A stretch of DNA of 64,000 nt from positions 1,454 through 65,453 of the forward strand of contig JAFRGC010000006.1 in the NCBI GenBank assembly GCA_017434025.1, given 5' to 3'. Below, piece after piece: positions 4,089 to 50,773 of the stretch; within the stretch, counting starts at the first letter, position 1; every line of letters starts with the position of its first letter. The position numbers were made by a program, and so were the translations under genes. Below the pieces are notes generated by a model. It made no database searches, was not told the origin of the DNA, and saw only the letters and a program-made list of their open reading frames with translations. This stretch comes from Mogibacterium sp. (GTDB lineage Bacteria > Bacillota > Clostridia > Peptostreptococcales > Anaerovoracaceae).

Positions 4089-4121
4089 TTAGTTTCTTTG
4101 TGTAAAGCTCTCGTCTGATTT

Positions 4122-7288: not shown

Positions 7289-7350
7289 TTCTTTCATTCC
7301 CCCTTCGTTTAGATATGTCATTGTATTACTCTTATCTGATGATTATGTGA

Positions 7351-15888: not shown

Positions 15889-15945
15889 ATTCATTCTCCT
15901 TATTAAAACTATCCCTGACCCTTGCTGCAGATCTGTAAGATCTGT

Positions 15946-16965: not shown

Positions 16966-17154
16966 GGAATTCTCCTCTCGTGTTTTACAAAAAGTATTCA
17001 ATATATTATACTTAATCATGCGCTATAATTCAATGAATATGCGGTTGCGGACGCCCGGAACGGACTCCATTAACAGATGCAACACCCGGGCCCTGCAGCG
17101 ACACTTATATATGAACAGATCCTACAATATCTGTTGGAAAGGAGGCGGTACGCC

Positions 17155-19083: not shown

Positions 19084-19089
19084 GTCAGT

Positions 19090-19097
19090 ATTATACA
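19090..19097 (-). promoter_or_regulatory. Extended -10 element (TGTATAAT) 6 nt upstream of the flippase ATG
   Basis: The minus-strand sequence is TGTATAAT-ACTGAC-ATG. No Shine-Dalgarno is present, which suggests a leaderless mRNA. Confidence 0.3.
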
Positions 19098-19138
19098 ACG
19101 AAAAGCGTCTCCTCTGCAGTCAATACATAGGAGACGCT
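19097..19138 (-). terminator. Terminator after the 19161-20528 gene
   Basis: A 9-bp stem AGCGTCTCC / GGAGACGCT with a 17-nt loop, followed on the minus strand by TTTTCGTT. Confidence 0.5.
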
Positions 19139-22466: not shown

Positions 22467-22645
22467 TGATCCTGTCCTTTCTTCCCTATGATACATGCAT
22501 TTTACCATTGAACAGCGGACCGCCGCAAGGAACCTCACTGTCTGTTCATGCAGCAGCCTGCTGCAGCGACCGTATATTAATAGGTAATTAAAGGTTGCGA
22601 AGGGGCGTTGAACATAATAGAATGACTATGAATGAGGTGAAAAAC

Positions 22646-26121: not shown

Positions 26122-26123
26122 TT

Positions 26124-30650: not shown

Positions 30651-30667
30651 TTCGCTACCTCCGGGAG

Positions 30668-35956: not shown

Positions 35957-36763
35957 TTAAAGTACATCCGGGATCTCTTTGCGCAGCTTCCTGTACGCCC
36001 ATAACGCGCCTAAGATGGCGACCGTCAGGGTGATAGCGAAGCAGACCAGCGATACTTTATCCGTCCAGAACCATTTCTTGTAGATGAACACTCTTCTGTA
36101 TCCTGTAGCGATGACTGTGACAGGATTGAACTTCAGGAGGATCCGCACCCACCTGGATGGAATATCGTCTACATTGTAAATAATGCCTGACATCCAGAAT
36201 ATTGCAGATGATAATGCTGTTACCAGATTCTGGAAGTCCTTGCTCAGCGCAGACAGCATCCCTGCAAACAGGGACCATACTATGAAGAATACCAGCATCA
36301 TGAACATATACAGCGGTATCTGCAGCGCATAGATATCCGGCGCATGGCCGAAGGCAGCAAACAATACAAATGTAATGCCAAGAATGATCAAGTGAATGAA
36401 CAGGTGCGACAGATTCACGTATGTCGGGATGATGGAAACCGGGAATTTCATTTTGGTGACAAGATGACTGTACTTTCTTATACAGCCAGCACCTCCGGTT
36501 ATCATTTCCTGCATGAAGAACCAAGGCAGGAAGCCCGCTTCAAGCCACAGGAAGAAAGGATATCCCTCAACTGGTTTGCCGCTTCTCAGTCCTACAGAGA
36601 AAGCAAACCAGAATACGAACAGCGTGATCAACGGTTTGATGATCGCCCATGACCAGCCAAGTGCAGCTCCTCTGTATGTCTTCACCAGATCGGATTTGGC
36701 AAGTTTAATTATCTGTTCCTTGTATTGAAGATGCTCGTCGAGTATTTCTTTAATCGTATTCAA
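35957..36763 (-). CDS. tagG: ABC-2 type transporter permease (TagG/KpsM type)
   Basis: 268 aa with 6 TM segments. The N-terminal DLVKTYRGAALGWSWAIIKP motif is typical of ABC-2 polysaccharide permeases. Probable TTG start. Confidence 0.85.
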   Translation of the reverse strand: MNTIKEILDEHLQYKEQIIKLAKSDLVKTYRGAALGWSWAIIKPLITLFVFWFAFSVGLRSGKPVEGYPFFLWLEAGFLPWFFMQEMITGGAGCIRKYSHLVTKMKFPVSIIPTYVNLSHLFIHLIILGITFVLFAAFGHAPDIYALQIPLYMFMMLVFFIVWSLFAGMLSALSKDFQNLVTALSSAIFWMSGIIYNVDDIPSRWVRILLKFNPVTVIATGYRRVFIYKKWFWTDKVSLVCFAITLTVAILGALWAYRKLRKEIPDVL

Positions 36764-38952: not shown

Positions 38953-38975
38953 GTGTTTTTGCTTCCCTATTACAG

Positions 38976-41963
38976 TTATTTAAGCATTAACGTTTTCTTG
39001 ATCTTCCGCTTGATCTTTTTGATCTTTCGTTTGATTTTCTTACTTCTGCTGACTGGAACTTCTTTGATGATTTCCTTTATAGCTTTGCCTACCTCTTCAT
39101 ACTCAAAGTCATGTAATTTGAAGAATGCTTTCTTCTCTTTGGCAATCGTTATCGTTTCTATAGCACTTGATCCGAAGGTAATGGCTCTTGATATCTCTAC
39201 ATCAAGATAATTATAGACTTCGATCGGAACGTTTTTCGGTAATATCGTTCCTCCCAAATAGCTGTAATCCATTTTATCAGCAGGGTGAGGTTTGATAAGA
39301 ACCCTCCCGCTCTTGTATGTCGCAAGCATTTTCTTCATCAGCTTCCTTTGGTCGTTTTCGGAACAATAACCGAATAACGCCAGCGGTTGTGTCAAAAGAA
39401 GCGTTGCATCAGGACTAAACTGTCCCGGATCAACATCGTATATCTGCAGCAGAAATTTCCTTATCTCATCATGATATTCCTGCTCGACCAGTTTCGTATC
39501 ATCGATCTCTATTTTATCATAATAGAATTCCGGAATCTGTTCCGGCCGGGAACTGACAATGATTTTATTGATCTTGTCAGATCGGAAGAACATCAGTGGG
39601 TATGTGGTACCTTCATATTTCTGTATTCCTGCCCATATACCCTGGATCTCATGGGTCTTCACCTCACGGTCAAAGGAATTGTAAGCATCTTCCAGCTTCA
39701 CGATATGATCAAATTCTCTTTCGATATAATACCAGTACGGAAGTGAATCCGAGAATATATAAATAGTGTCAATCTTAGTGTTGCACTCTTTGAAAACATC
39801 CTTGAACCTGCTGTACAAGAAATGAGGAATGATTATATCGTCCTCCCCCGGTCGTTTTCTTAACTCTTCGAAGAGATTTACTACGATACCTCCATAAACA
39901 AACGGTTTTACAAGATCGAAGATCCCGGTTTGTCTTATTTTATAAATCAGGTTAGTATCAAACGGAATATATGACTGGCAGATGAACAATCTGCATTTTC
40001 TCTTATTTTTCAGCGCATACAGGCATGCGACATATAGATGATAGTGCGTAAATACAACATAATCATCATATGGTTCGGCCTGATCTCCTTCTGTCCCGTA
40101 ATATTTATCTATTACATATTTAAAATACTCAAAATTATCAACTGTAAATGCTTGTGTTAACTCTTTGATATTCTGAGCATACTTATCAACAGAAAGATAT
40201 TCTTTCCTTTCGAGCACAAACTTTCTTATTTTTTCAAAGGCAAGTAATTGGTCCTTCTCAGGGAACGAATAGAAAGAATACAGATACAGATTAAGATCTG
40301 TCAGAAGAATCGTCTCTAATCGTCTTGATCTGGCCACCTCAGGATAATCGATCCATGCACGCGCCTGTTTCGTTAATCGCTCCTCAAGGTTTCTGATAGT
40401 AACTGTTGATGATATCGTCGTATTATCTCCATACTGATACCACCAATATATTGGAACATTTATATAATGAAATTCCGGGATATTTGCATATAACTTTGCG
40501 GAATACTCAACATCTTCATACAAACCTGGGGTAAACCATATACCTGCGTCATTGATTCTCTGTCTTCTGATGAGTGAATTAGTCACCATGACATCCGAAT
40601 ATATTTCGTTTTCACTATTATCCGCGTAATAGCAGGTAAAAGTATCTCCGGCAAGATACTTCTGTGATTCTATCTGCGGTACCCCTTTGTCATCACACAG
40701 AATTCTGATACCGCGAACCATATCCAGATCATAGAAATCTGCATGTGACACCAGACACCTTAATCCATCACGGCTTATGGTATCATCTGCGTCCAGGAAG
40801 AAGATATATTTGCCGGTGGCTTTCCTGATCCCGTAATTCCTGGATAGCCCAAGGCCTTCATTTTCTTTATGGAAGTATTTTATCCTGTTATCATTGAAGG
40901 TTTCTGCTAATTGTTTTTCTACATTGTCTCTGGAACCATCATCAATGATCAGGATCTCGACATTTTCATGACCACTGTTAAGTACAGATCCCACAGCACG
41001 ATTCACGAAATCCATAGGAGTGTTGTACCTGCAGATAATAAAGCTTACTTTGCTTTCAGCACAATTATTGATATTGTACAGAGCCTCCATGAGTTTTCTG
41101 TACTTTACATATTCGCTGTCTTCTGAGCCGAATTCTATAGTCTTTGACTTTGCTGCAGCGTCTTCTAATACTTTCAGCTGAAAGTCTGAAAACCTTCGTA
41201 TATTATCTGTTTTCAGCTTAATGTCATTCTTGCTTATTAATTCATCAAAATAGCTTTTTGAATACTCGTCTTCTATAAGAATCGTTCCGTCAAACTCTTT
41301 AAGAACGGACAGCGGTTCAAGCTGTGCCTTTAATTCGAGAAAGGTTGTAGCGCATTTCTCGTTGCGTTTCTCGGAGCAGATTATAATATTGTTGCCTGAG
41401 TCTTCTTTTACAGAATTAAAGAGATGGTATAGACCATTTCTGTCTTTGAGCGCATCTTCCTTTCTGTTGGATGTAACTATCAAAAAATCTTCTTTATCAG
41501 CCGGAGGATCCTCTTCGATGTCCATTGCATCTATGATCGTTTCCGGTGTACAGGATCCAATTTTTTTTACATGAATATGATCAAATCTTGTCGCTATACT
41601 CTCTTCTACAGATGAGCTGTCAGTGATGATCTCATTGATCTCTGCCATGCATCCGGCGAAATGATTAACATCGAAATCATGCAGCACATAGATCAGCGTC
41701 TGATTGTTTTTTCTCTTAAAATAGCGCGGCGCCTGCGTAGTAACTACTGTATATTCTGCAGTATCCCGGAAATAAATGAACCGGCTGGAGTTCATCTCAA
41801 AGTGGATCTTCCTGTCGAGAACACTCCTGGATATATAGCTAAAATTATAGCCGGTAACTAAAATGTCATAACATTCCGAGTATCTGCCTACAAATGCATC
41901 AAGCAATTCGGGAATGCCTTTTTCCTTATAGTCACCGATAAACAGTATCTTTGGCTTTTTCAT
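38976..41963 (-). CDS. Three-domain glycosyltransferase: N-terminal unknown/GT-B-like domain, central GT2 domain, C-terminal sialyltransferase-like domain, basic tail
   Basis: GAGGAG Shine-Dalgarno, then MKKPKILFIGD. The GT2 core is VSFIICRYNTP..ILIIDDGSRDN..FLDADD. The C-domain has LEDAYNS, IKPHPADK and TFGSSA, and the tail is KKIKRKIKKIKRKIKK. G+C is markedly lower than in the flanks. Confidence 0.6.
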   Translation of the reverse strand: MKKPKILFIGDYKEKGIPELLDAFVGRYSECYDILVTGYNFSYISRSVLDRKIHFEMNSSRFIYFRDTAEYTVVTTQAPRYFKRKNNQTLIYVLHDFDVNHFAGCMAEINEIITDSSSVEESIATRFDHIHVKKIGSCTPETIIDAMDIEEDPPADKEDFLIVTSNRKEDALKDRNGLYHLFNSVKEDSGNNIIICSEKRNEKCATTFLELKAQLEPLSVLKEFDGTILIEDEYSKSYFDELISKNDIKLKTDNIRRFSDFQLKVLEDAAAKSKTIEFGSEDSEYVKYRKLMEALYNINNCAESKVSFIICRYNTPMDFVNRAVGSVLNSGHENVEILIIDDGSRDNVEKQLAETFNDNRIKYFHKENEGLGLSRNYGIRKATGKYIFFLDADDTISRDGLRCLVSHADFYDLDMVRGIRILCDDKGVPQIESQKYLAGDTFTCYYADNSENEIYSDVMVTNSLIRRQRINDAGIWFTPGLYEDVEYSAKLYANIPEFHYINVPIYWWYQYGDNTTISSTVTIRNLEERLTKQARAWIDYPEVARSRRLETILLTDLNLYLYSFYSFPEKDQLLAFEKIRKFVLERKEYLSVDKYAQNIKELTQAFTVDNFEYFKYVIDKYYGTEGDQAEPYDDYVVFTHYHLYVACLYALKNKRKCRLFICQSYIPFDTNLIYKIRQTGIFDLVKPFVYGGIVVNLFEELRKRPGEDDIIIPHFLYSRFKDVFKECNTKIDTIYIFSDSLPYWYYIEREFDHIVKLEDAYNSFDREVKTHEIQGIWAGIQKYEGTTYPLMFFRSDKINKIIVSSRPEQIPEFYYDKIEIDDTKLVEQEYHDEIRKFLLQIYDVDPGQFSPDATLLLTQPLALFGYCSENDQRKLMKKMLATYKSGRVLIKPHPADKMDYSYLGGTILPKNVPIEVYNYLDVEISRAITFGSSAIETITIAKEKKAFFKLHDFEYEEVGKAIKEIIKEVPVSRSKKIKRKIKKIKRKIKKTLMLK
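39000..39041 (-). repeat. 2 x 21 bp tandem duplication encoding KKIKRKI-KKIKRKI at the transferase C-terminus
   Basis: GATCTTCCGCTTGATCTTTTT and GATCTTTCGTTTGATTTTCTT match at 17 of 21 positions. Confidence 0.8.
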
Positions 41964-42009
41964 TACGCACTCCTCGCGACCAGACAAATGCCAATCAGTC
42001 AGCACAGGA

Positions 42010-43023
42010 TCAGTTGATCAGATCCCACGACAGCGGTGTGCCGGCCTCTGCATCAACAGCGAATTCCCTGCCCATCACTTTGTCATATTCCTTCGGTGCA
42101 AGTCCGTTGGATGGCCTGACGCTTCTTACATTATCCGGAGTGATCTTATCTCCGGCTTTCACATCTTGCGCAATGAACAGCGACCTGGCATATTTGCGGC
42201 TGTTCTGCTTCTTCTCTGTGATCTCGTATGTGACCTGTCCTCTGATCTTCTCGACCAGCCGGACCTTCTCGACCATAGCGCCGAATTCCTCCGGTGTCAT
42301 AGAGAAAGATGCGTCCGGACCGCCTATCGCTTTGTCGAGAATAAAGTGCTTCTCTATAACAGCGGCACCCATTGCTGCTGCTGCGACTGCTACCGCGTCA
42401 CCGGTTGTATGATCGGAGAGTCCCGTCTTGCAGCCAAATCGTTCTTTCATGTCAAGCATGGTGTTCAGATTGGCATCTTCGAGTTTCGCCGGGTATTCCG
42501 ATGTGCATTTGAGCAGGCATACGTCTGTATTGCCTACCTGGTGACAAGCCTCTACGGCGTCTCTTATCTCTTCCTCAGTCGCTATGCCGGTAGAGATGAT
42601 CATTGGTTTGCCCAGTCTTGCCGCGTACTTGATCAGCGGAATGTCGGTGATCTCGAACGATGCGATCTTATAGATCGGGTTCCCGCATTTCTCCAGCAGA
42701 TCTACTGCAGTGAAATCGAAAGGCGTGGACAGAAGCGGGAAGTCTATGCTTCTCGCATATTCGTACAGCTCTTCATGCCACTCCCACGGCATGAATGCCT
42801 CGCTGTACAGCTTGTAGAGCGTCGTTCCGTCCCAGATCGTTCCTGTATCGATCTGGAAGTATTCGTTGTCGCAGTCCAGGGTGATAGTATCTGGAGTATA
42901 TGACTGGATTTTGGCAGCATCACAGCCGATCTCTTTCGCTTTCAGTATCGATTTCTTGACGATCTCGATGTCATGTCCGTGATTAGCCGAAATCTCAGCG
43001 ATCATCATTACTTTGTTACTCAT
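42010..43023 (-). CDS. Nonulosonic acid synthase (NeuB/PseI/LegI family)
   Basis: MIAEISANHGHD, a TIM-barrel NeuB signature, and a C-terminal SAF/antifreeze-like domain (GDKITPDNVRSVRP). GGAGG Shine-Dalgarno. The ATGAGTAA overlap with the upstream stop indicates translational coupling. Confidence 0.85.
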   Translation of the reverse strand: MSNKVMMIAEISANHGHDIEIVKKSILKAKEIGCDAAKIQSYTPDTITLDCDNEYFQIDTGTIWDGTTLYKLYSEAFMPWEWHEELYEYARSIDFPLLSTPFDFTAVDLLEKCGNPIYKIASFEITDIPLIKYAARLGKPMIISTGIATEEEIRDAVEACHQVGNTDVCLLKCTSEYPAKLEDANLNTMLDMKERFGCKTGLSDHTTGDAVAVAAAAMGAAVIEKHFILDKAIGGPDASFSMTPEEFGAMVEKVRLVEKIRGQVTYEITEKKQNSRKYARSLFIAQDVKAGDKITPDNVRSVRPSNGLAPKEYDKVMGREFAVDAEAGTPLSWDLIN

Positions 43024-43990
43024 CACATCCTCCGCTGCAGGCTGTTTCACAGATGAGATCCTTGCCGGACCGGTCTGACCGGAAAGATCTCAGTTTGTCA
43101 GCCATCTGTTTTCTTTTATCAAATGAGAACATGCTCCTGATGACTTCCGCGTCATCATCATACATGGCCTCTGTGAATCCGTTTTCTGTCAGGTACATGG
43201 TGTTCAGCCTCTGGTTGTCAGCAACAACGACCAATACTGACGGGAGCTGCATCTTGATCAGTTCGTTTGTCGTTCCTCCTGCGGATGCAACAGCAAAATC
43301 ACATTTCTCCATAAGGCTGCACATATCGGCTGCCTCAATATTCAGATATAATCTGTCTTCACTGCCGAGACTGTTCCTGATCTCATCCAGATCTCTGTAC
43401 GCTCTCGTGCAGACTACATGAAGACGGGCGGTTTCTGAAATCTCTTTGAGGTCTTTGATGATCACCGCGGTTCTTCCCAGAGGATCCGTTCCTCCCATGG
43501 TGATCAGGATATCGGTAACCTCTTCCTTGATGGTCCTCTCACCATGCAGTCTGAATTCATCCCTCAGTAAGGTGTAATCCTTGCCAAGATACAGAGTGTT
43601 GTTCCGGTCAGCAGGATAGTTCATGAAGACCGAGAAATAATTCGGATTGAGGATCTTCATATCATGATAGTCGAGCCTGATATTATCATCTATTACTATC
43701 ATGTCTCCGGCCAGAGCGCGGAATTCCTCCAGCAGCTGCAGATCCACATGGTAGGAATCAATGACAAGCAAAACATTCCTGTTAAGTATGCTTCCGTATA
43801 CTTCAGGATCTTTCCATTCTGCGAATTCTATATATTCCTTGTCCAGATTGGATCTCGCAGTGTCATCTGCCATCAGGTACATCGTCACATCACGGCCTTC
43901 TCTGACCGCTCTGTCGCAGATGCCTGACATTCTGTAAAAATGACCGAAGCCGTACATGAAGCCGGCTTCGGAAAAAATCACTAATTTCAA
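43016..43990 (-). CDS. PseG/SpsG-like UDP-sugar hydrolase (GT28/MurG-like fold)
   Basis: The N-terminus KLVIFSEAGFMYGFGHFYRMSGICDRA fits the PseG consensus (x-R-x-D-x-x-x-x-G-x-G-H), and GGT..E lies near the C-terminus. Probable TTG start. At 324 aa there is no fused GNAT domain. Confidence 0.65.
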   Translation of the reverse strand: MKLVIFSEAGFMYGFGHFYRMSGICDRAVREGRDVTMYLMADDTARSNLDKEYIEFAEWKDPEVYGSILNRNVLLVIDSYHVDLQLLEEFRALAGDMIVIDDNIRLDYHDMKILNPNYFSVFMNYPADRNNTLYLGKDYTLLRDEFRLHGERTIKEEVTDILITMGGTDPLGRTAVIIKDLKEISETARLHVVCTRAYRDLDEIRNSLGSEDRLYLNIEAADMCSLMEKCDFAVASAGGTTNELIKMQLPSVLVVVADNQRLNTMYLTENGFTEAMYDDDAEVIRSMFSFDKRKQMADKLRSFRSDRSGKDLICETACSGGCDE

Positions 43991-43994
43991 ATTA

Positions 43995-44822
43995 CTATTT
44001 GCCCTCCAGAAGAGCCGCAGCCCTGTTCATTTCCTGCAGCTTGAGCAGCTTAACTGCAGCCTCGAGCTCTGCCTCAACCGTATCGTATTTCTGCTTCTGC
44101 ATGATATCACCATTGATATTGCTGATATACGGATGCTCTTTGAAGCAGTCGAGTACAGTTCTGAAAGACAGTCTGTTCTCTTTGCCGCGGATGAAATCTG
44201 TGACTACGCATGCCAGTGTGTAGTCATTGATCGTATCGACCGTGATCCTCACCTTGCTGTAATCTTCATCCGGCAACGCGAGGCTTCCGATCCTGAATTC
44301 ATCCTGATGATGTGTAACATAGCTGGTAACATGCTCTCTGTAGAACTGCTCCGTCGTGTTCTCATGCATCCATTTGAGGACATCATAAGTCAGGATCTCA
44401 CAGTCGAGTCCGTGAGGATAAGTTCTCCTGATGCAATTGCTCGCATACTGATAGTCTCCTTTGATGAAGAGGTCTATCAGCTCCTCGATGACCGAAGGGT
44501 CGAGGAACGGACAGTCACTTGTGATCCTTACTACGTTGTCATATCCGAATTCAGTCGCCGCGTTGTAGAAACGGTCCAGAACGTCATTCTCACTTCCGCG
44601 GTAATATGCGATGCCTTCTCTGGCTGCGTATTCTGCCAGCGGATCATCATCTGCATTGATCGTGCACGCAATGACAAAGTGATCCAGGTTCTTCACAGCT
44701 CTGAGTCTTTCGACTACACTGCCGAGGACAGTCATCCCATTCGAATAATCCAGAGTCCTGAGCACCTTACCCGGCAGTCTGCTCGAGGTCATTCTGGCCT
44801 GAACGATACATCCTGTTTTCAT
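43995..44822 (-). CDS. Cytidylyltransferase (CTP_transf_3, SpsF/PseF/NeuA-like), putative CMP-nonulosonate synthetase
   Basis: MKTGCIVQARMTSSRLPGKVL is the characteristic SpsF-type nucleotide-binding loop, and RITSDCPFLDP is also present. Confidence 0.7.
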   Translation of the reverse strand: MKTGCIVQARMTSSRLPGKVLRTLDYSNGMTVLGSVVERLRAVKNLDHFVIACTINADDDPLAEYAAREGIAYYRGSENDVLDRFYNAATEFGYDNVVRITSDCPFLDPSVIEELIDLFIKGDYQYASNCIRRTYPHGLDCEILTYDVLKWMHENTTEQFYREHVTSYVTHHQDEFRIGSLALPDEDYSKVRITVDTINDYTLACVVTDFIRGKENRLSFRTVLDCFKEHPYISNINGDIMQKQKYDTVEAELEAAVKLLKLQEMNRAAALLEGK

Positions 44823-44837: not shown

Positions 44838-45848
44838 CTAGACAAGCTTGTATTCTACGAGCAGTTTCTCAATATCTTCGACTGAAAGCCACTCAGAGTT
44901 GTTTCCGGAGTTATACTCAAAACCGTCCTCGATCGGCTTGCCGCCTTCTTTGAAGGAACGCTTGAAATCGAACCATTCGAAGTTTGGATAGATGATGTAG
45001 TAATCACCATAATCGTATGTTGATCTGGAGTCATCCTTGGTGATCATGACTTCGTGGATCTTCTCACCCTCTCTGATGCCTACGATCTTCATCTTAGCAT
45101 CCGGTGCCATAGCCTTGCAGATGTCTGTTACTTTATATGAAGGGTTCTTGAATACGAAAGTTTCACCGCCTGTCATATTTTCAACAGCCATGAGAACCAG
45201 CTTAACTGCCTTGTCGAGGGTCATCCAGAATCTGGTCATTCTCTCATCTGTTACAGGGAGCTCATCAAATCCCTTGTCGATCAGATCCTTGAAGAACGGG
45301 ATTACCGAACCGCGGCTTCCGGATACGTTGCCGTATCTTACCAGACCGAACTTGGTGCCGTTTGCTCCGGAATATGCGTTAGCCGATACGAACAGCTTGT
45401 CGGATACCAGTTTGGTACCGCCGTAGAGGTTGATCGGGTTGACAGCCTTGTCTGTAGACAGAGCGACTACCTTCTCTACACCAGTCTCAAGAGCAGCATC
45501 AATGATGTTCATAGCTCCGTTGATGTTGGTCTTGATAGCCTCTGTAGGGTTGTATTCGCAAGCCGGTACCTGCTTCATAGCAGCTGCATGGATAACGATA
45601 TCTACACCCTTGAATGCCAGCTTGAGTCTGTCCTTATCCCTGATATCTCCGATGAAGAATCTGAACTTCTTCATTGCTTCAGCACCATACTTTGCTGTGA
45701 AGTCCTTCTTCATCAGGTCCTGCTTGAACTCATCTCTTGAGAAAATGATGATTTTTCCGAAGTTGTACTTTTCGATCAGCTCTCCGGAAAATGCTTTACC
45801 GAATGAACCTGTTCCCCCAGTGATAAGAATAGTTTTGTCTGCGAACAT
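44838..45848 (-). CDS. pseB: UDP-N-acetylglucosamine 4,6-dehydratase (inverting), PseB/FlaA1/CapD-like
   Basis: KTILITGGTGSFGKAF, IIIFSRDEFKQ and YGGTKLVSDKL (YxxxK) form the typical PseB pattern. Confidence 0.8.
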   Translation of the reverse strand: MFADKTILITGGTGSFGKAFSGELIEKYNFGKIIIFSRDEFKQDLMKKDFTAKYGAEAMKKFRFFIGDIRDKDRLKLAFKGVDIVIHAAAMKQVPACEYNPTEAIKTNINGAMNIIDAALETGVEKVVALSTDKAVNPINLYGGTKLVSDKLFVSANAYSGANGTKFGLVRYGNVSGSRGSVIPFFKDLIDKGFDELPVTDERMTRFWMTLDKAVKLVLMAVENMTGGETFVFKNPSYKVTDICKAMAPDAKMKIVGIREGEKIHEVMITKDDSRSTYDYGDYYIIYPNFEWFDFKRSFKEGGKPIEDGFEYNSGNNSEWLSVEDIEKLLVEYKLV

Positions 45849-45890: not shown

Positions 45891-47039
45891 TTATATTTTG
45901 AACTTCTTAATAGTATCGATAACGAATCCCTGCTCTTCCGCTGTCATGCTGTGGTACATCGGAAGGCTGATCTCTCCAGTATAGAATGCTTCTGCTTCCG
46001 GACAATCGCCTTCTTTGAATCCGAAATTATCCATGTAGTATGGATGCAGATGAAGAGGTACATAATGGATCTGTGCATAGATCTTATTCTCACGCAGATA
46101 AGCGTGTAAAGCCTTGCGGACTTCCGCTGAGCAGCATCTGATCGTGAACAGATGATATGAGTGAACTGTATCGCCCTCTGCATCAAATCCGAGATGCGGC
46201 GGCAGTTCGAAGAAGCTGCAGTCCTTGAGCTCCTCATGATATCTTGCTGCAATAGCATTTCTTGCTGCAAGATTCTCTTTGAGCCTTGCGAACTGGCTGA
46301 GTCCGAGCGCTGCCTGGAAATCCGTCAGTCTGTAGTTGTAGCCAAGCTCCTGCATCTCATAATACCATGGGCCGTCATTCTTCCTGAGTCTTGCCGGATC
46401 TCTGGTGATACCGTGTGTCCTGAACAGTCTGAGTTTCTCATTCAGCTCGTCACTGTTCGTCAGGACCATGCCGCCTTCACCTGTCGTTACGTGCTTGACC
46501 GGATGGAAGGAAAGGATGGCCATGTCGACGTATTCCATGCCAAATGTTCCGTCTCTCCTGCTTCCGAGTGCGTGGCATGCGTCATGGATAATGTGGCAGC
46601 CCTTCTCCTGCGCGATCTCGTGGATCGCTTTCAGATCAACCGGATATCCTGCATATGATACCGGTGTGATCACCTTAGTCTTGTCTGTAATAGCATCTCT
46701 GAGCTTGTTGACGTCCAGGCAGTTTGTGGAAGGATCCATATCAACAAAGCGAGGTGTCGCGCCACAGTAGAGACCGCCGTTGACAGAAGCTGCAAATGTG
46801 ATCGGTGAAGAGATCACTTCATCTCCCGGGCATGTTCCAAGCGCGTAATAAGCAGCGTGGAGGGCTGCTGTTCCGTTGGCAAATGCTACACCATACTTAG
46901 CGCCGTGATACTCCGCAACAGTTCTCTCGAATTCCGGAAGGACCTCTCCCTGAGTGATCAGTTCAGATCTGAGGACCTCTACCACTCTTGCTATGTCTTC
47001 TTCTGTAATGCACTGTTTACCGTAAGGTATCTTGTTCAT
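45891..47039 (-). CDS. pseC: UDP-4-amino-4,6-dideoxy-N-acetyl-hexosamine transaminase (PseC/DegT family)
   Basis: IPYGKQCITEEDIARVVEVLRSELITQGEV and FANGTAALH, with the PLP-Lys region SFHPVKHVTTGEGG. GGAGG Shine-Dalgarno lies before the ATG at 47039. Confidence 0.8.
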   Translation of the reverse strand: MNKIPYGKQCITEEDIARVVEVLRSELITQGEVLPEFERTVAEYHGAKYGVAFANGTAALHAAYYALGTCPGDEVISSPITFAASVNGGLYCGATPRFVDMDPSTNCLDVNKLRDAITDKTKVITPVSYAGYPVDLKAIHEIAQEKGCHIIHDACHALGSRRDGTFGMEYVDMAILSFHPVKHVTTGEGGMVLTNSDELNEKLRLFRTHGITRDPARLRKNDGPWYYEMQELGYNYRLTDFQAALGLSQFARLKENLAARNAIAARYHEELKDCSFFELPPHLGFDAEGDTVHSYHLFTIRCCSAEVRKALHAYLRENKIYAQIHYVPLHLHPYYMDNFGFKEGDCPEAEAFYTGEISLPMYHSMTAEEQGFVIDTIKKFKI

Positions 47040-47053
47040 CTCATCCTCCCTTT

Positions 47054-48205
47054 CTATCTGCACGCCTCCAGGATCTTCTGGACTGCGAGTTTATCAAGCG
47101 TCAGATATCCGTTGATATTGTTTTTCCTGCAGATCGCTTCAGCCATATCGGCTGCGTCGATCTCTTCTATTCCTGCGGCTTTCAGTGATGATGCCAGTCC
47201 GAGGGTCTCATACAGGAATTTCTCCACGCTGTCCACCGCTGCGCATTCATCAGTAACGCCGAAAACATTCTCTCCGAACTCTCTGAATCTTGCTCTGGTC
47301 TCCGGCTCTGCATCCATACAGTATCTCATCCACTTAGGAATGATGATCGCCAGTCCGAGACCATGTGTCATATCGTATCTTGCGGACAGTTCGTGTTCGA
47401 TCGGGTGACAGCTCCATACCTGTCTGGATCCTCCTCCGAACAGTCCGTTGATCGCCCAGGATGCCGCCCAGAGCAGGTTCCCTCTTGCCTCGTAGTTATC
47501 CGGCTCAGCAAGTACCTTCTCTGCGTTGGCAACGACCGCTTTCATAACGCCTTCCATCATTCTGTCGAGCAGGCAGAAGTCCAGGTCCTTCTTGAAGTAA
47601 CTCTCCATCACATGTGAGAGTATATCTGCTGCTCCGCAGGCTGTCTGGAACCGAGGCACAGAATAGGTCAGCTCCGGATCCAGGAATGAGGCCTTAGGAA
47701 AGACCGGGAATCCTCCCCGTCCGAGTTTCTCGCAGGTCTCATCATTGCTGATGACTGCCCCGCAAGTCATCTCAGATCCTGTAGATGCCATCGTCACGAT
47801 CGTGAACAGCGGCAGGGCCTTCTCGATGGCTCTGCGCGGGCCGCCATAGAACTCCCATGGATCGAAATCCACACAAGCGCCGGCTGCGATCGCTTTGGAC
47901 GCATCGATAACGGAGCCGCCTCCGACTGCCAGGATGATCTCTATCCCTTCTTCTTTGCACTTATCTGCACCTCTGCGGATCGACCCGATCTTAGGATTTG
48001 GTTCGATCCCTCCGTGTTCGAAGACTTCAAAATCATCTCCCAGCAGATCCTTGATCCTGTCAAGCAGGCCGGTCCTGATCACAGAGCCTCCGCCGTAAAC
48101 GATAAGGACTTTTCTTCCGAAACTCTTCAGCTCAGCGTTCAGCTTGCCGAGGCAGTCCTTACCGAAATACATCTTGGTAGGAATGTGGAAAACAAAATCA
48201 TTCAT
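47054..48205 (-). CDS. Iron-containing (group III) alcohol dehydrogenase, butanol/4-hydroxybutyrate dehydrogenase-like
   Basis: Contains VGGGSVIDASKAIA and metal-binding His motifs (HPIEHELS..THGLGLA). AGGAG Shine-Dalgarno. Confidence 0.8.
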   Translation of the reverse strand: MNDFVFHIPTKMYFGKDCLGKLNAELKSFGRKVLIVYGGGSVIRTGLLDRIKDLLGDDFEVFEHGGIEPNPKIGSIRRGADKCKEEGIEIILAVGGGSVIDASKAIAAGACVDFDPWEFYGGPRRAIEKALPLFTIVTMASTGSEMTCGAVISNDETCEKLGRGGFPVFPKASFLDPELTYSVPRFQTACGAADILSHVMESYFKKDLDFCLLDRMMEGVMKAVVANAEKVLAEPDNYEARGNLLWAASWAINGLFGGGSRQVWSCHPIEHELSARYDMTHGLGLAIIIPKWMRYCMDAEPETRARFREFGENVFGVTDECAAVDSVEKFLYETLGLASSLKAAGIEEIDAADMAEAICRKNNINGYLTLDKLAVQKILEACR

Positions 48206-48217
48206 ATCGTAAATCTC

Positions 48218-49417
48218 CTACAGTTCATTCAGCACTCTGTCCAGTGTGTCGACTGCAAAATCAATATCTTTCTCTTCTATCAGGTAATCCGGCAGGAATC
48301 TGAGTGTATGTCCGCCGTTCGTTCCCTGGATGATCACACCGTTCTTCATCATGCGGTCGTAGAGTGTGGCGTAGAGAGGTCTGTAATCCTCAACGCCTTC
48401 ATAATACAGCTCGCATCCCAGCATCAGGCCCTTGCCTCTTGCGTCTCTGATATGATCATTCTTCTGCTCCAGCTCCTTGAGCTTCTCAAGGAAGTAATCG
48501 CCTCGTGCAGTGATGCCAGCCAGCACATCATTCTTCTCGATATATTCAACAGCAGTATTGATGATTGCTGCCGCAAAGGAATCATTCTGGTGTGAGCTGT
48601 AATGCGACATTCTGTATACTTCGTCAGGAACGAGTTCTTTCCTGAACATCGCTACCGATACCGGGAATCCGAGGCCTACGCTCTTGGCAAGAACGACCAT
48701 ATCCGGAACGGTCTCAAAGGTCTGGTACGCGAACCAGTTACCGGTCCTTCCGAACCCTGTCTGGCTCTCGTCGAATACGAGCAGTGTATCGTTGTCATCG
48801 CAGACTTTGCGCAGCAGCTCGAACCACTTCTTCGGCGGATACAGCATTCCTCCGACAGAAACGATCGGCTCGAGTATTACAGATGCGTAATTGCCTGTAG
48901 CGAGGAGCTTATCCAGCGCAGCTGCTGATTCAACAGCCTCCTCTTCTGTTACAGGGACCTTGATGGTCTCGATCTCGTCTACATGAGGTTTCGCGAATTT
49001 GCCGCCAAACGTGATCGTCTGTGAACCGAGTGTAAGTCCGTGATATCCCTTGTCAAAACAAACTACGCCTTCTCTGCCCTTGAGGAATTTGGAGAACCTC
49101 ATGCAGAATTCCACTGCTTCCGAGCCTGTGCTCAGGAGGATGCTGTACGCATCCATATCTCCGCTCAGCTCATTGAGTTTGTTAGAGCATATTGCGACTT
49201 CATCAGTATATATATTAGAAGCTGTATGAACGATCTTCCTTGCCTTATCGAAGATCTTCTCCAAGACTTCTTCATTTGAATGTCCAAGCGCGACACAGAA
49301 CTGTCCTGAATTGAGATCAAGATATTTCTTGCCCTCAACATCATAGACCCAGCTGCCTTCACCTCTGGACATGATCTCTTCAGTGAAATGAATAATAGGT
49401 AATAAATGGTTTTCCAC
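48218..49417 (-). CDS. Class III (omega/GABA/acetylornithine-type) PLP aminotransferase
   Basis: Contains YLDLNSGQFCVALGH and LVFDESQTGFGRTGNWFA, with the catalytic-Lys region VLAKSVGLGFP. I prefer the GTG start at 49417, just after the upstream stop, with AAGGAGG upstream. The ORF track extends to 49477. Confidence 0.75.
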   Translation of the reverse strand: MENHLLPIIHFTEEIMSRGEGSWVYDVEGKKYLDLNSGQFCVALGHSNEEVLEKIFDKARKIVHTASNIYTDEVAICSNKLNELSGDMDAYSILLSTGSEAVEFCMRFSKFLKGREGVVCFDKGYHGLTLGSQTITFGGKFAKPHVDEIETIKVPVTEEEAVESAAALDKLLATGNYASVILEPIVSVGGMLYPPKKWFELLRKVCDDNDTLLVFDESQTGFGRTGNWFAYQTFETVPDMVVLAKSVGLGFPVSVAMFRKELVPDEVYRMSHYSSHQNDSFAAAIINTAVEYIEKNDVLAGITARGDYFLEKLKELEQKNDHIRDARGKGLMLGCELYYEGVEDYRPLYATLYDRMMKNGVIIQGTNGGHTLRFLPDYLIEEKDIDFAVDTLDRVLNEL

Positions 49418-49422
49418 TACTC

Positions 49423-50637
49423 CTATACCTCCTTGATAATAAATTTTTTCTCTATTTCTGCACAGATCTCTCTGCACTTATCTAAAGTATCTGCTTTCAC
49501 AACATAGAAGCCTCTGCCCATAACAGAGCTTCCGTCTGTGACTTTGCCCAGCCTGTCGCCTTCCTTCATATAGCAGTTATAACAGAAGACGCCTTCCATC
49601 GCTTCGATCTCTTCCTGCGTCGGGAGATACTCGATCACGCCCTCAAGCAGGTCAAAATAGCGGATAAGCATGCTTTCCGCATTGTATGTATAGCATACCT
49701 TATGCTCTTCGCCGCGTGAACGGGCTGTCGCATAGTCTATATACTCTGAAAGCATATCAAATCCTGTTGCGTATCTTGTAAAGTAATTGTGAAGATAATG
49801 TCCGGATGGACGAGGTGACAGCTCGATGATAAAGGCTTCCTTGCCATCATCCATTATATCCACGTGCATCAGGCAGTCATCGAGGCCGAGGACCTCTGTC
49901 GCTCCGCCAAGAACAGCATAGACTCTGTTAAAGAGTTCTGCAGTCTCACTATTCTGCTCAATTGCGTAATATCCGACACACTGTCTGTAAGGTTCCGGTG
50001 TCAGGAGCTTCTCTCTGAGAAGGATCAGGTGGAACTCTCCCCCTGCTATAAACGCATCGACGCCATATTCAATGCCTGGTTTGCAGGTCTCGACGATATA
50101 GTCTTCATCGTATTCTGCAACATCGGCATTATCATCCCTGAGCTCTTCAAAAGACTTGTAGACCTTGACTGCTCTGCTTCCTGAGCCGAATCTAGGCTTC
50201 ATTACGACCGGATACTGCATATCCCTGAGTCCGTCTATCTGCTCCTTGCGGTTGATCAGCACAGCATCCGCGTTGCGAAGACCCGCGTCTGAAAGGATCC
50301 GATGGAATTCCCATTTATCAGTCGCGAGACTGGCTGCTCTCTGTCCAACGCCCGGAAGTCCGTATCTGTCATTCACCGCGCCGGCGGTAGTCAGAATTCT
50401 GCCAACCGGGACCGGCAGCAGAAAGTCTACCGGGTTGCTGTCAAAGAACTCGAATACCGCACCCGTATCTCTCAGATCTACTGTATATCCTTCATCCGCG
50501 CATTCCAAACCCGGTGCAGCCGGATTACCGTCTATTGCGATCGTCGTTATGCCCCTTGCACGGGCTTCTTTGATCGCATATATAGATTCACTGCTTGCAC
50601 CGATGATTCCTGCTCTATATTTCTCTTTCATATACAT
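49423..50637 (-). CDS. ATP-grasp domain ligase (paralog 4), first gene of the nonulosonic-acid operon
   Basis: Contains YRAGIIGASSESIYAIKEAR, VVMKPRFGSGSRA, YIVETCKPGIEYGVD and IIELSPRPSG. Confidence 0.75.
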   Translation of the reverse strand: MYMKEKYRAGIIGASSESIYAIKEARARGITTIAIDGNPAAPGLECADEGYTVDLRDTGAVFEFFDSNPVDFLLPVPVGRILTTAGAVNDRYGLPGVGQRAASLATDKWEFHRILSDAGLRNADAVLINRKEQIDGLRDMQYPVVMKPRFGSGSRAVKVYKSFEELRDDNADVAEYDEDYIVETCKPGIEYGVDAFIAGGEFHLILLREKLLTPEPYRQCVGYYAIEQNSETAELFNRVYAVLGGATEVLGLDDCLMHVDIMDDGKEAFIIELSPRPSGHYLHNYFTRYATGFDMLSEYIDYATARSRGEEHKVCYTYNAESMLIRYFDLLEGVIEYLPTQEEIEAMEGVFCYNCYMKEGDRLGKVTDGSSVMGRGFYVVKADTLDKCREICAEIEKKFIIKEV

Positions 50638-50683: not shown

Positions 50684-50712
50684 ATTTTAACACAATATGC
50701 TGTATTGAACAA
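50684..50712 (-). promoter_or_regulatory. Candidate sigma-A promoter with extended -10 for the 12-gene operon
   Basis: The minus strand reads TTGTTC-N17 (ending TGT)-TAAAAT. It lies directly downstream of the 50741-50773 terminator and about 45 nt upstream of the ATG. Confidence 0.5.
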
Positions 50713-50740
50713 TTTGAAACTCTTGAGATCCTTTCAATAA

Positions 50741-50773
50741 CAAAAAGAGGCTTCTGCTATCAGCAGAAGCCTC
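50741..50773 (-). terminator. Rho-independent terminator after the NlpC/P60 gene
   Basis: A 12-bp perfect stem GAGGCTTCTGCT / AGCAGAAGCCTC with a 3-nt loop, then TTTTT on the minus strand. Confidence 0.85.

Follow-up and report, generated by a model that had tools for sequence, protein, structure and literature searches.

The window analysed here, a stretch of 64,000 nucleotides from Mogibacterium sp., holds a nonulosonate operon without the acetyltransferase PseH of pseudaminic acid (Pse) synthesis, which raises the question of what acylates the 4-amino sugar instead and what three non-canonical genes at the operon head contribute. Going by the sequence, the best explanation is that the operon would supply CMP-activated pseudaminic acid with a non-acetyl N7 substituent for an ABC-exported cell-wall glycopolymer.

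Operon layout and the search for PseH

The operon comprises 12 genes with gaps of no more than 43 nt, all on the minus strand, to which every coordinate below refers. Three open reading frames that a preliminary description had placed between the operon promoter and pseC were confirmed; they run from 50637 to 47054 and encode an L-amino-acid-ligase-like ATP-grasp enzyme, a class III aminotransferase and a group III Fe-alcohol dehydrogenase (Fe-ADH), together called the trio. Directly downstream lie pseC, pseB, a cytidylyltransferase gene, a pseG-like gene and pseI, then two glycosyltransferase genes and an ABC exporter. The position of the trio at the operon head is plausible: in the predicted control region at 50684..50773, as read from the sequence, a hairpin with a T-run (about 50742-50773) behind the upstream NlpC/P60 gene, the terminator of that gene, is followed by a promoter-like TTGTTC-17 nt-TGTTAAAAT at 50684-50712 with the extended -10-like TGTTAAAAT at 50684-50692, though a consensus scan found no canonical promoter at 50684-50773. 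Next to the operon, the window has a teichoic-acid-type cluster with three further ATP-grasp genes.

The operon shares with the canonical PseB-PseC-PseH-PseG-PseI-PseF pathway of Campylobacter and Helicobacter (PMC7910423, PMC4363471) three proteins that exceed their NCBIfam equivalog cut-offs: the UDP-4-amino-4,6-dideoxy-N-acetyl-beta-L-altrosamine transaminase PseC (45891..47063; TIGR03588, 441.9 bits against 423.5), the inverting UDP-GlcNAc 4,6-dehydratase PseB (44838..45848; TIGR03589, 515.6 against 407.75) and the pseudaminic acid synthase PseI (42010..43050; TIGR03586, 468.5 against 340). PseG-like and cytidylyltransferase genes lie in the same operon here too. It differs in having no PseH, in the trio at its head, in a PseG-like UDP-sugar hydrolase (324 aa, 43016..43990) that falls below the equivalog cut-off (TIGR03590, 133.6 bits against 153.55), and in a cytidylyltransferase that is not recognised as PseF. 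The latter, assigned as a divergent CMP-nonulosonate cytidylyltransferase in the PseF role (43995..44822; Pfam CTP_transf_3, 2.3e-24), gave no PseF equivalog match, and its NCBIfam matches are weak and of the KdsB type. Further downstream, a multidomain glycosyltransferase of 1009 aa (38976..42005) has a GT2 core (Pfam Glycos_transf_2, residues 321-482) and a faint TagF-like N-terminus (Glyphos_transf, E 0.008), with a GC content of 0.39-0.41 here. It is followed by a polysialyltransferase/GT52-like nonulosonate transferase of 720 aa (36790..38952; Pfam A-2_8-polyST and Glyco_transf_52), whose 47% identical homologue in Mogibacterium L003/L007 sits at the corresponding place, and by the ABC-2 permease (35957-36763; Pfam ABC2_membrane) and ABC ATPase (35207-35935; Pfam ABC_tran) of a TagG/TagH-type glycopolymer exporter.

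The earlier statement that no acetyltransferase is encoded between 35.2 and 50.7 kb held up. Domain scans of all operon genes revealed no GNAT or hexapeptide acetyltransferase across this interval, and none was detected in the 10 largest antisense ORFs or in 20 further flanking ORFs of the window, five genes beyond the operon (191-5906 and 60853-63369) lying outside the scan. No acyltransferase domain turned up where the two large glycosyltransferases lack annotation, and the PseG-like protein is, as had been described, not fused to an acetyltransferase, Glyco_tran_28_C being its sole Pfam domain. Among the loci with a full PseB/C/G/I/cytidylyltransferase set, none of the 22 harbors an acetyltransferase candidate (GNAT or LbH), and several have no unassigned ORF within the cluster; this sweep was run on representatives of the clusters and on the 25 families at the top of the list, and a singleton GNAT may have slipped through. 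The absence of PseH was assessed at the loci and in the window rather than over whole genomes, and PseH could lie elsewhere in the genome. That it is missing from a tightly packed and otherwise complete Pse operon counts in favour of a ligase as its substitute.

Three enzymes at the operon head

The first gene of the trio (49423..50637) encodes an L-amino-acid-ligase-like carboxylate-amine ligase of 404 aa with ATP-grasp_3/ATP-grasp_4 and weak LAL_C2 matches in Pfam. Against PDB profiles it matches 4dim, L-amino-acid ligases (LALs) and CPS, and the AF2 model (pLDDT 93) gave 4dim, BL00235, RizA, BacD, PurK and PurT as top Foldseek matches; the predicted fold is thus closest to L-amino-acid ligases and PurK/PurT. 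In LALs and PurK/PurT a small acid is coupled to an amine on a bulkier substrate, often a ribose-phosphate, and the likeness counts in favour of our best explanation. As had been proposed, the enzyme is a candidate for amide formation, and by sequence the sole one in the operon.

The class III (fold type I) PLP aminotransferase of about 399 aa (48218..49417; Aminotran_3, 2.4e-75) probably starts at the GTG at 49417, since homologues begin MENHLLP, the mechanical ORF being 48218-49477. It is 100% identical to a protein of a Mogibacterium sp. MAG, and database names for these proteins are generic, e.g., 'aspartate aminotransferase family protein'. Every NCBIfam equivalog stayed under its cut-off, those for GABA-AT and the arginine pathway far under. 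In the alignment, 'YHGLT' of the enzyme corresponds to 'FHGRT' of ArgD and 'WHGMT' of dialkylglycine decarboxylase (DGD), and the substrate-carboxylate-binding Arg of ArgD, an equivalent of which is presumably carried by GabT and OAT, is replaced by Leu in 120/120 family members. Both results set aside the GABA-type identity suggested before. The enzyme keeps the Arg for the co-substrate, the Lys for PLP and the counterpart of DGD Q52, and the signature Q/Y/L/S-V/K/R, invariant in all 120 homologues, marks a distinct subfamily. Its active site appears to resemble that of DGD in part: Q52, K272 and R406 have identical counterparts, and W138 to Y and M141 to L are conservative, while S215 is replaced by Val and overall identity is about 30% (168 bits for DGD against 179 bits for ArgD). 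We hypothesise that the enzyme may perform decarboxylative chemistry; the change of S215 to Val leaves the DGD-like signature only partial, which counts against our best explanation.

The third protein, of 383 aa (47054..48205; Pfam Fe-ADH and ADH_Fe_C), carries both PROSITE patterns (ADH_IRON_1 and ADH_IRON_2) and the GGGS motif, and its PDB comparisons gave 4e-86 for 1vlj and 1e-69 for YqhD. It is proposed to be a putative aldehyde reductase. The earlier assignment to the 4-hydroxybutyrate dehydrogenase type was not supported, since the model for it, with its cut-off at 500 bits, gave 132; butanol dehydrogenase/YqhD aldehyde reductases are closest.

These assignments bear on whether the acyl group is made before ligation. 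The aminotransferase and ADH might act on free metabolites, for example from GABA through succinate semialdehyde to 4-hydroxybutyrate, and the ATP-grasp enzyme might then ligate the finished hydroxy acid for PseH. Such a route explains the make-up of the trio and the lack of PseH as well as the best explanation does; 4-hydroxybutanoyl is known on 8-epilegionaminic acid of Yersinia ruckeri and is reported on another amino sugar as well, and the clade-specific pairing of ATP-grasp subtypes with their partners (below) could mean different acid substrates. However, the missing substrate-carboxylate-binding Arg and the low GABA-AT and 4-hydroxybutyrate dehydrogenase scores argue against it, and it leaves a decarboxylase/cytidylyltransferase fusion found in relatives unexplained; we consider it quite improbable.

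Conservation across species loci

The view of the trio as a conserved, non-canonical part of Pse operons was borne out in other species. Of 80 species loci, from several phyla, 71 have a PseI homologue no more than 10 kb from the member of the ATP-grasp family, and a PseG-like gene is present in 65 and a cytidylyltransferase gene in 69 of the 80. The partner of the ATP-grasp gene is a fold-type III PLP decarboxylase in 61 loci and the class III aminotransferase of the trio in 12, the two never occurring together, and ATP-grasp subtypes pair with the partner type clade by clade. Wherever upstream DNA was available for aminotransferase homologues of at least 45% identity, the ATP-grasp gene was directly upstream, and in the longer contigs L085-L087 the aminotransferase adjoins NeuB/PseI (3/3). 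The 8-gene module of the window was also observed in RUG MAGs of Clostridiales, in MAGs of Mogibacterium and, with changed gene order, in an Erysipelotrichia MAG; within it, the ATP-grasp enzyme (63-73% identity) and PseG (63-66%) diverge fastest, the remaining genes being 80-97% identical, and this counts in favour of our best explanation. Recurrence of these genes in other species puts their arrangement far beyond what chance would produce.

The ADH slot varies, with different Fe-ADH subtypes, a Zn-ADH in the actinobacterium L085 and AKR plus Fe-ADH in L070, and the gene is missing from many aminotransferase loci, a pattern that fits a generic aldehyde reductase finishing step. Within the trio, the ATP-grasp/aminotransferase pair is the conserved part, with an optional and replaceable ADH.

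The same linkage speaks to the very improbable case that the trio is unrelated to the nonulosonate, being housekeeping ArgD/YqhD-like genes or the decoration of another part of the wall polymer, with PseH elsewhere and Pse5Ac7Ac as the sugar. The additional ATP-grasp genes of the neighbouring teichoic-acid-type cluster could mean that ATP-grasp decoration is common in the organism, and the generic database names would agree with it; against it stand the invariable upstream ATP-grasp gene, the adjacent NeuB/PseI in L085-L087, the PseI linkage over several phyla and the low arginine-pathway scores.

The decarboxylase of the relatives matches N-citrylornithine decarboxylase FslC best, with LysA also among the best matches, and BtrK (PDB 7ru7) at 3e-20. 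It is related to BtrK, FslC and LysA, enzymes of tethered amino acids, although the matches to FslC and LysA would fit tethering by the amine as well as by the carboxylate. In Butyrivibrio it is fused to the CMP-transferase (cytidylyltransferase), which we read as monomer-level tailoring. Distant aminotransferase/ATP-grasp(/Fe-ADH) cassettes adjoin DegT sugar aminotransferases in non-nonulosonate loci, and the ATP-grasp enzymes beside these distant homologues carry a PylC-like_N domain. A UDP-sugar 6-dehydrogenase gene adjoins the cassette in L105, while the 9 kb of L102 contain no acidic-sugar gene; no acetyltransferase was found in L102 or L105 (in L105 with a 412-aa ORF outside the scan), L104 and L108 being scanned in part, and these cassettes count in favour of our best explanation. 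At two distant trio loci an acetyltransferase does adjoin the ATP-grasp gene, an XAT-type LbH (L039) and a GNAT (L070), neither of which reached the cut-off of a model for PseH or for NeuD-type proteins; they count against the PseH-replacement reading. Downstream polymerases vary between strains.

Order of the reactions and acceptor of the amide

In our preferred reading, which we hold to be about evenly balanced between right and wrong, the ATP-grasp enzyme N-acylates the 4-amino sugar for PseH, after which the amine or amino-acid end of the acyl group is converted to a hydroxyl by the PLP enzyme and the reductase. PseB and PseC, by equivalog-level homology, yield UDP-4-amino-4,6-dideoxy-beta-L-AltNAc. 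The L-amino-acid-ligase-like enzyme would form the acyl phosphate of a small acid, carboxylic or amino, and amide-link this acid to the sugar C4 amine, later N7 of Pse. The aminotransferase, without an Arg for binding a free carboxylate, would convert the free amine or alpha-amino-acid end to an aldehyde by omega-transamination or DGD-like decarboxylative transamination, and the YqhD/butanol-dehydrogenase-like Fe-ADH would reduce this to a terminal hydroxyl, giving an omega-hydroxyacyl group, possibly with an amino group too. The divergent PseG-like protein, PseI and the cytidylyltransferase would finish the monomer. In most relatives, the decarboxylase in place of aminotransferase and ADH would leave an omega-aminoacyl group. 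This replacement suggests the order 'ligate, then tailor', which is preferred to 'make free acid, then ligate'; of the first alternative offered earlier, the ligase acting for PseH is favoured and the prior synthesis of a free acid is not. The mutual exclusion of the two PLP enzymes likewise fits tailoring of one ligated group.

Known systems offer partial likenesses. In butirosin synthesis, the ATP-grasp enzyme BtrJ tethers an amino acid and BtrK decarboxylates gamma-glutamyl-S-BtrI. ATP-grasp tethering followed by an Orn/DAP/Arg-family decarboxylase removing the alpha-carboxyl of the tethered residue would be common to this pair and the relatives; here, however, a carrier protein is lacking, a sugar amine would serve as acceptor, and the window has aminotransferase and ADH rather than a decarboxylase. 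In pyrrolysine synthesis, PylC, also an ATP-grasp enzyme, ligates a diamino acid via its carboxylate to an amine, and the NAD-dependent dehydrogenase PylD converts the terminal amine to an aldehyde. The ligate-then-aldehyde logic and the PylC-like_N domain of the distant cassettes are shared, whereas amine removal here would be by transamination and the window's enzyme is LAL-like, not PylC-like. In Shewanella oneidensis, whose flagellin bears a nonulosonic-acid-type modification, the uncharacterised ATP-grasp_4 protein SfmE (SO_3265) is encoded in a flagellin-modification operon (PMC3765264), a similar context as judged by description rather than sequence, with a methyltransferase and a ketoreductase as partners instead.

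A Campylobacter precedent, given correctly in the preliminary description, would favour another acceptor. For the glucuronamide of the Campylobacter jejuni HS:2 capsule, the transaminase Cj1437 or the decarboxylase Cj1436 makes a free amine, the ATP-dependent amidoligase Cj1438C works after sugar incorporation, and Cj1435 is a phosphatase (PMC11800397). Both are surface-polysaccharide loci with an ATP-dependent amide ligase and a PLP transaminase or decarboxylase, and this identity with the pattern of GlcA amidation counts against our best explanation. By analogy, in the main rival reading, the PLP enzyme would provide a free amine from an aldehyde that the ADH makes from an alcohol, while in relatives the decarboxylase would release it from an amino acid; the ATP-grasp enzyme could then attach this amine to a carboxylate, at C1 of pseudaminic acid or on some other acidic sugar, probably once the polymer has formed, as happens in HS:2. 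The finding that aminotransferase and decarboxylase exclude each other, as alternative amine suppliers would, the FslC match, the UDP-sugar 6-dehydrogenase in L105, the acetyltransferases in L039 and L070, and the fast ATP-grasp divergence alongside strain-to-strain differences in downstream polymerases are all consistent with it. Even so, we regard it as rather unlikely. Under it, 22/22 complete clusters would have no enzyme to acylate the N7 amine; CMP activation requires a free carboxylate, the Butyrivibrio fusion indicates monomer-level chemistry, and we know of no natural C1-amidated nonulosonate. The ADHs are aldehyde-reductase types whose patchy occurrence suits reduction more than obligatory oxidation, and L102 lacks an acidic-sugar gene. 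Unlike HS:2, where the acceptor is the C6 carboxylate of GlcA in the polymer, the missing PseH here argues for an amine, and neither a HAD phosphatase nor any other accessory gene of the Campylobacter type is present in the operon. The class III aminotransferase and fold-type III decarboxylase are presumably also unlike the Campylobacter PLP enzymes. N-acylation is therefore favoured over carboxylate amidation, on the gene content of these loci.

No published characterisation of this ligase/PLP-enzyme system was found. From its genes, this operon of a gut or rumen Mogibacterium would make a sugar with a non-acetyl decoration, as yet uncharacterised and probably widespread in anaerobes.

Layout of the pseudaminic acid operon and the search for an acetyltransferase

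The three genes at the head of the pseudaminic acid (Pse) operon form three ORFs that run in one direction on the minus strand, at the coordinates given for them in the preliminary description. The first encodes an ATP-grasp protein (49423-50637) with ATP-grasp_3/4 domains and a weak match to LAL_C2, the second a class III aminotransferase (48218-49477; Aminotran_3, 2.4e-75), which probably starts at the GTG at 49417, and the third an iron-dependent alcohol dehydrogenase (47054-48205) with Fe-ADH and ADH_Fe_C domains. The genes after the trio overlap or are spaced by no more than 43 nt, and encode PseC (TIGR03588, 441.9 bits against a cut-off of 423.5), PseB (TIGR03589, 515.6 against 407.75), a cytidylyltransferase with only a generic CTP_transf_3 match, a PseG-like protein of 324 aa that scores under its cut-off (TIGR03590, 133.6 against 153.55), and PseI (TIGR03586, 468.5 against 340.25). 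Downstream of PseI lie a 1009-aa GT2 protein and a 720-aa polysialyltransferase/GT52-like protein, with an ABC-2 permease and its ATPase at the end of the gene run. In the profile search PseB, PseC and PseI all exceed their NCBIfam equivalog cut-offs; the operon is a Pse operon with these three as true members, while the third step and the tailoring are non-canonical. The NlpC/P60 gene upstream of the ATP-grasp gene ends in a hairpin followed by a T-run, and after this hairpin an extended -10-like motif, TGTTAAAAT, can be read from the sequence ahead of the ATP-grasp gene; the trio therefore plausibly heads the operon and precedes pseC, as originally described. A consensus promoter/terminator scan called no promoter at the operon head, its counts being at shuffle level.

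The region at 38000-42000, which covers the 1009-aa GT2 gene and part of the polysialyltransferase-like gene, has a GC content of 0.39-0.41 as against about 0.50 elsewhere, and two close relatives (L001 and L008) carry TagF-like polymerases at this position. The region has the appearance of a polymerase cassette that has been swapped and varies between strains.

In the canonical pathway, PseH N-acylates the PseC product as the third step (PMC4363471, PMC7910423). Pfam searches detected no GNAT or hexapeptide-repeat domain in the 12 operon genes, in the ten largest antisense ORFs at 35.2-50.7 kb, in the unannotated N- and C-terminal parts of both large transferases, or in 20 flanking ORFs of the window (five genes at 191-5906 and 60853-63369 lay outside the scan). 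A hidden acetyltransferase domain in the large glycosyltransferases or the antisense ORFs is ruled out at Pfam sensitivity, and the earlier claim that PseH is absent from 35.2-50.7 kb holds at that sensitivity for the ORFs of the window that were scanned; so does the claim that the PseG-like protein is unfused to an acetyltransferase, as it has no second domain. Among the relatives, 22 loci combine PseB, PseC, PseG, PseI and the cytidylyltransferase; none of them yielded an acetyltransferase candidate, and several contain zero unassigned ORFs inside the cluster. Two distant trio loci do have an acetyltransferase beside the ligase, and in neither is the role of PseH clearly filled: that of L039, of the XAT-type left-handed beta-helix (LbH) kind, is XAT/Vat-like and reached no PseH or NeuD model, and the GNAT of L070 matched no NCBIfam model at 1e-10.

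Further glycopolymer genes were observed elsewhere in the window. Three more ATP-grasp genes (26124-27251, 27274-28566 with a weak LAL_C2 match, and 29523-30671, all on the minus strand), with about 25% identity to the operon ligase, surround a GT2 gene (28569-29504) and are directly followed by TagF-like glycerophosphotransferases (30668-33030), suggesting that a second wall polymer is decorated with peptides or aminoacyl groups. A second amino-sugar pathway, also on the minus strand, comprises a 4,6-dehydratase (15946-17019) and a DegT aminotransferase (14758-15894). Its surroundings include a Wzx-like flippase (17803-19098) and YfhO (10442-13189) as well as a large TagF-like protein (7351-10455), and here too the search near the genes at 14758-17019 detected no acetyltransferase. 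Within the glycopolymer region, four ORFs (197-602 aa) gave no Pfam match (17077-17715 on the plus strand; 22577-23170, 20730-22538 and 24799-26163 on the minus strand).

Recurrence of the module across genomes

The eight-gene module, in the order ATP-grasp, aminotransferase, Fe-ADH, PseC, PseB, cytidylyltransferase, PseG-like and PseI, recurs in Clostridiales RUG and Mogibacterium MAGs with ATP-grasp homologues of 63-73% identity, and the aminotransferase has a 100% identical counterpart on a 67-kb contig of a Mogibacterium sp. MAG. The polymerases downstream vary, being TagF-like in some loci and polysialyltransferase-like in others, and the fastest-diverging genes of the module are those of the ATP-grasp protein and PseG. 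An Erysipelotrichia MAG (L037) carries the same eight genes reordered and followed by an ABC transporter. Megablast of the trio against the E. coli genome gave no match, and an exact-protein look-up of the ATP-grasp protein returned no record.

When an alignment of the ATP-grasp family was scanned against one genome per GTDB species, 187 stretches encoding relatives were confirmed, and neighbours up to roughly 10 kb from the ATP-grasp gene were counted in 80 kept loci, each on its own contig of that collection. Co-occurrence of the trio with pseBC was proposed for checking in the preliminary description; for the ATP-grasp family, a PseI homologue lies near the gene in 71 of the 80 loci, PseC in 35 and PseB in 28; a cytidylyltransferase (69/80) and a PseG-like protein (65/80) are also frequent. 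A fold-type III PLP decarboxylase is present in 61 loci and a window-type class III aminotransferase in 12, the two never occur together (0/80), and seven loci contain neither. The aminotransferase homologues form a tight subfamily in sequence searches. On metagenome contigs that retain the upstream DNA, all 17 homologues of at least 45% identity are directly preceded by an ATP-grasp gene, and on longer contigs three of three (L085-L087) adjoin an ATP-grasp gene and NeuB. The ATP-grasp family, the aminotransferase subfamily and the decarboxylase are spread over rumen and gut Clostridia, including Butyrivibrio, Lachnospiraceae, Eisenbergiella and Mogibacterium, and also occur in Erysipelotrichia, Elusimicrobia, Treponema and Bacteroidales MAGs and in one actinobacterium.

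More distant aminotransferase homologues (37-41% identity) still adjoin ATP-grasp ligases, from different subfamilies: a LAL-like one in L102 and PylC-like ones in L104, L105 and L108. These four are non-nonulosonate polysaccharide loci, some with an Fe-ADH; a DegT-family sugar aminotransferase is present in L102, L105 and L108, and neither L102 nor L105 yielded an acetyltransferase (the 412-aa ORF of L105 lay outside the scan, and L104 and L108 were scanned in part).

Several loci show additional features. Many class III aminotransferases with 25-30% identity to the window enzyme were found on metagenome contigs (L110-L167), captured by the peptide pattern HYSSHQND or GYHGLTLG[AST], and may point to a broader Arg-less clade. 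The trio locus of the oral spirochaete Treponema sp. OMZ 840 (L070) contains an extra class III enzyme, an aldo-keto reductase and the GNAT (8091-9386, 6609-7400), the second class III enzyme being of the glutamate-1-semialdehyde aminomutase type (371 bits, below cut-off), which suggests a more elaborate nonulosonate modification. Proteins with DUF4910, DUF2172 and HTH_47 lie inside decarboxylase-type loci (L047, 6364-7719; also L052 and L082), and this family includes Campylobacter Cj1295, which is linked to a Pse modification.

Predicted functions of the ligase, the PLP enzymes and the dehydrogenase

The ATP-grasp protein passes the Pfam cut-offs for ATP-grasp_3 (38.7 bits against 23.2) and ATP-grasp_4 (35.3 against 27), and scores 21.4 bits against a cut-off of 29.4 for LAL_C2 (PF18603). 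Its PDB sequence and profile matches are headed by 4dim, an uncharacterised structural-genomics protein, followed by L-amino-acid ligases (LALs), carbamoyl-phosphate synthetase, PurT/PurK and D-Ala-D-Ala ligases. An AF2 model (pLDDT 93) has the three-domain ATP-grasp fold, and Foldseek placed 4dim, BL00235, RizA and BacD at the top (TM 0.72-0.79), with PurK and PurT also among the neighbours, the fold search not discriminating acceptor types. The fold and the Pfam domains would place the protein in the LAL-like branch of the ATP-grasp superfamily, as a putative ligase. Enzymes of the LAL, PurK and PurT types convert a small carboxylate into an acyl phosphate, which is then passed to an amine on another substrate, often the larger of the two. 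A neighbour-joining tree of ATP-grasp sequences gave no decision on whether decarboxylase-type and aminotransferase-type loci share an acid substrate.

The aminotransferase (PF00202, 254 bits) retains the PLP lysine, the Asp-x-x-Gln motif and the C-terminal co-substrate Arg, with VLAK, FDESQTG and TLRFLP kept in 120 of 120 homologues. It scores below the cut-off of every NCBIfam equivalog, including ArgD, GabT/GABA-AT, OAT and putrescine aminotransferase. In the HMMER alignment its 'GYHGLTLG' lies over 'FHGRTLG' of T. maritima ArgD and 'WHGMTG' of dialkylglycine decarboxylase (DGD), so that the Arg position of the ArgD 'HGRT' is occupied by Leu, which is invariant in all 120 family members. 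In ArgD-type enzymes this Arg holds the carboxylate of the substrate, as do its counterparts in GabT (R141) and OAT (R180). The GABA-type label first given to the enzyme is not sustained, both by this invariant Leu and by the equivalog scores, and a housekeeping ArgD/GabT and YqhD identity is rejected on synteny and the Arg-to-Leu change. The active-site set of DGD consists of Q52, W138, M141, S215, K272 and R406 (PMC10169451). The equivalents of Q52 (the 'SGQ' glutamine), K272 and R406 are identical in the window enzyme and W138 and M141 are conservatively replaced by Y and L, whereas S215 differs (V); these positions are likewise invariant in 120/120 members. The residues suggest that the substrate is most likely an amine without a free carboxylate at the usual distance, such as an amide-tethered residue, and we hypothesise that the enzyme might work in the manner of DGD, with decarboxylation coupled to transamination.

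The dehydrogenase contains both PROSITE iron-ADH signatures (1 and 2), the GGGS nucleotide motif and the Fe-ADH Pfam domains, and is a group III member. Its assignment to the 4-hydroxybutyrate dehydrogenase type is not supported, as it scores far under that equivalog cut-off (NF058672, 132.5 against 500) and its nearest structures are the butanol dehydrogenase 1vlj (4e-86) and the aldehyde reductase YqhD (1e-69); the YqhD equivalog is also missed (NF011717, 262 against 645). The dehydrogenase is optional, the aminotransferase having no such partner in L034, L055, L066, L080, L086 and L087, and it is divergent in L037, L039 and L070 (Fe-ADH subtypes of 25-29% identity), the last of which adds the aldo-keto reductase. 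In the actinobacterium Gryllotalpicola reticulitermitis (L085, 6771-7832) a zinc MDR dehydrogenase, best matching scyllo-inosose and threonine dehydrogenase types below cut-off, stands in the place of the Fe-ADH between NeuB and the ATP-grasp/aminotransferase pair, and is a non-orthologous replacement. This patchiness and non-orthology would be expected of a generic finishing step that reduces an aldehyde, and cellular reductases are often able to cover such a step.

The decarboxylase of the relatives carries Orn_Arg_deC_N and is fused to the cytidylyltransferase in Butyrivibrio. It matches the N-citrylornithine decarboxylase FslC (132 bits; PDB 7kh2, 6e-32), LysA, and the L-glutamyl-[BtrI] decarboxylase BtrK (PDB 7ru7, 3e-20), its nearest characterised kin acting on DAP or on amino acids tethered via the side chain. 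In butirosin biosynthesis a gamma-linked glutamate becomes a 4-aminobutyryl group through the combined action of BtrJ, an ATP-grasp ligase, and BtrK; the decarboxylase loci could carry out the equivalent conversion on a sugar amine. The fusion suggests tailoring at the monomer stage, and NeuA with an esterase domain is a precedent for tailoring fused to a CMP-transferase.

Acylation of the sugar amine or amidation of a carboxylate

The ATP-grasp protein is the sole candidate for an amide-forming enzyme and travels with the Pse genes where PseH is absent, and therefore an order in which the ligase acylates the amine and a PLP partner then remodels the acyl end is favoured, the chemistry being predicted. 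The ligase would attach a small acid or amino acid to the C4 amine (the future N7), and the PLP partner, a decarboxylase in most relatives, would remodel the free end of the ligated group. In the window version the aminotransferase would turn this end into an aldehyde, which the reductase would convert to a hydroxyl; the product would be an omega-hydroxyacyl group that may also carry an amino group. The non-canonical PseG-like protein and cytidylyltransferase, the fast divergence of ATP-grasp and PseG, and the distant aminotransferase/ATP-grasp pairs in non-nonulosonate loci all fit this order.

The main alternative, a live one although we consider it rather unlikely, is that the ATP-grasp enzyme amidates the C1 carboxylate of Pse, or another acid, in the manner of the Campylobacter HS:2 capsule. 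There, the transaminase Cj1437 or the decarboxylase Cj1436 makes an amine, which the ATP-dependent amidoligase Cj1438C joins to glucuronate in the polymer, at its C6 carboxylate (PMC11800397). The pattern of an amide ligase with either an aminotransferase or a decarboxylase is shared by the window and its relatives and follows the same logic; L105 encodes a UDP-sugar dehydrogenase, and the acetyltransferases beside the ligase in L039 and L070 also speak for amidation. However, under amidation none of the complete clusters would have an enzyme left to acylate N7, and the CMP-transferase fusion points to monomer chemistry. The HS:2 system has a HAD phosphatase, whereas Pfam searches found neither a HAD phosphatase nor a UDP-sugar dehydrogenase in the window operon, which contains no phosphatase or other accessory gene. 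We know of no C1-amidated nonulosonate.

Acylation followed by remodelling may extend further, although we hold this wider reading only tentatively and think it rather improbable as a whole: a widespread 'ligate-then-tailor' system in which an ATP-grasp enzyme takes the place of PseH, which depends on acetyl-CoA, and links an amino acid to the amine of the nucleotide sugar, and interchangeable PLP enzymes, either a BtrK/FslC-like decarboxylase or a new DGD-like aminotransferase with a recruited aldehyde reductase, remodel the pendant end in situ to give omega-amino- or omega-hydroxy-acyl Pse. Its carriers would be gut and rumen Firmicutes, Actinobacteria, Spirochaetes and Elusimicrobia, and the cassette would also serve other DegT-derived amino sugars.

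Literature searches for a connection between pseudaminic, legionaminic or nonulosonic acids and an ATP-grasp or amino-acid ligase yielded only the uncharacterised Shewanella SfmE and an unrelated C. difficile locus, with no paper tying such a ligase to Pse or Leg biosynthesis, and nothing relevant was found on 4-hydroxy- or 4-aminobutanoyl Pse. The ATP-grasp family, the aminotransferase subfamily with its Q/Y/L/V signature and the decarboxylase alternative appear to be uncharacterised; the observation itself is solid and its generalisation new, and we infer the chemistry. As surface antigens and immune-evasion sugars, nonulosonic acids are of major importance; their N-acyl groups define serotype and receptor recognition, and to our knowledge the enzymes installing non-acetyl N-acyl groups are poorly characterised. 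If the proposed route is correct, an ATP-dependent, acetyl-CoA-independent reaction would explain the origin of such groups, the genes would serve as a genomic marker by which novel Pse derivatives could be predicted for uncultured anaerobes of gut and rumen, and the chemoenzymatic toolbox for sialic-acid-like sugars would gain a ligase and a class III aminotransferase subfamily, both of them new.
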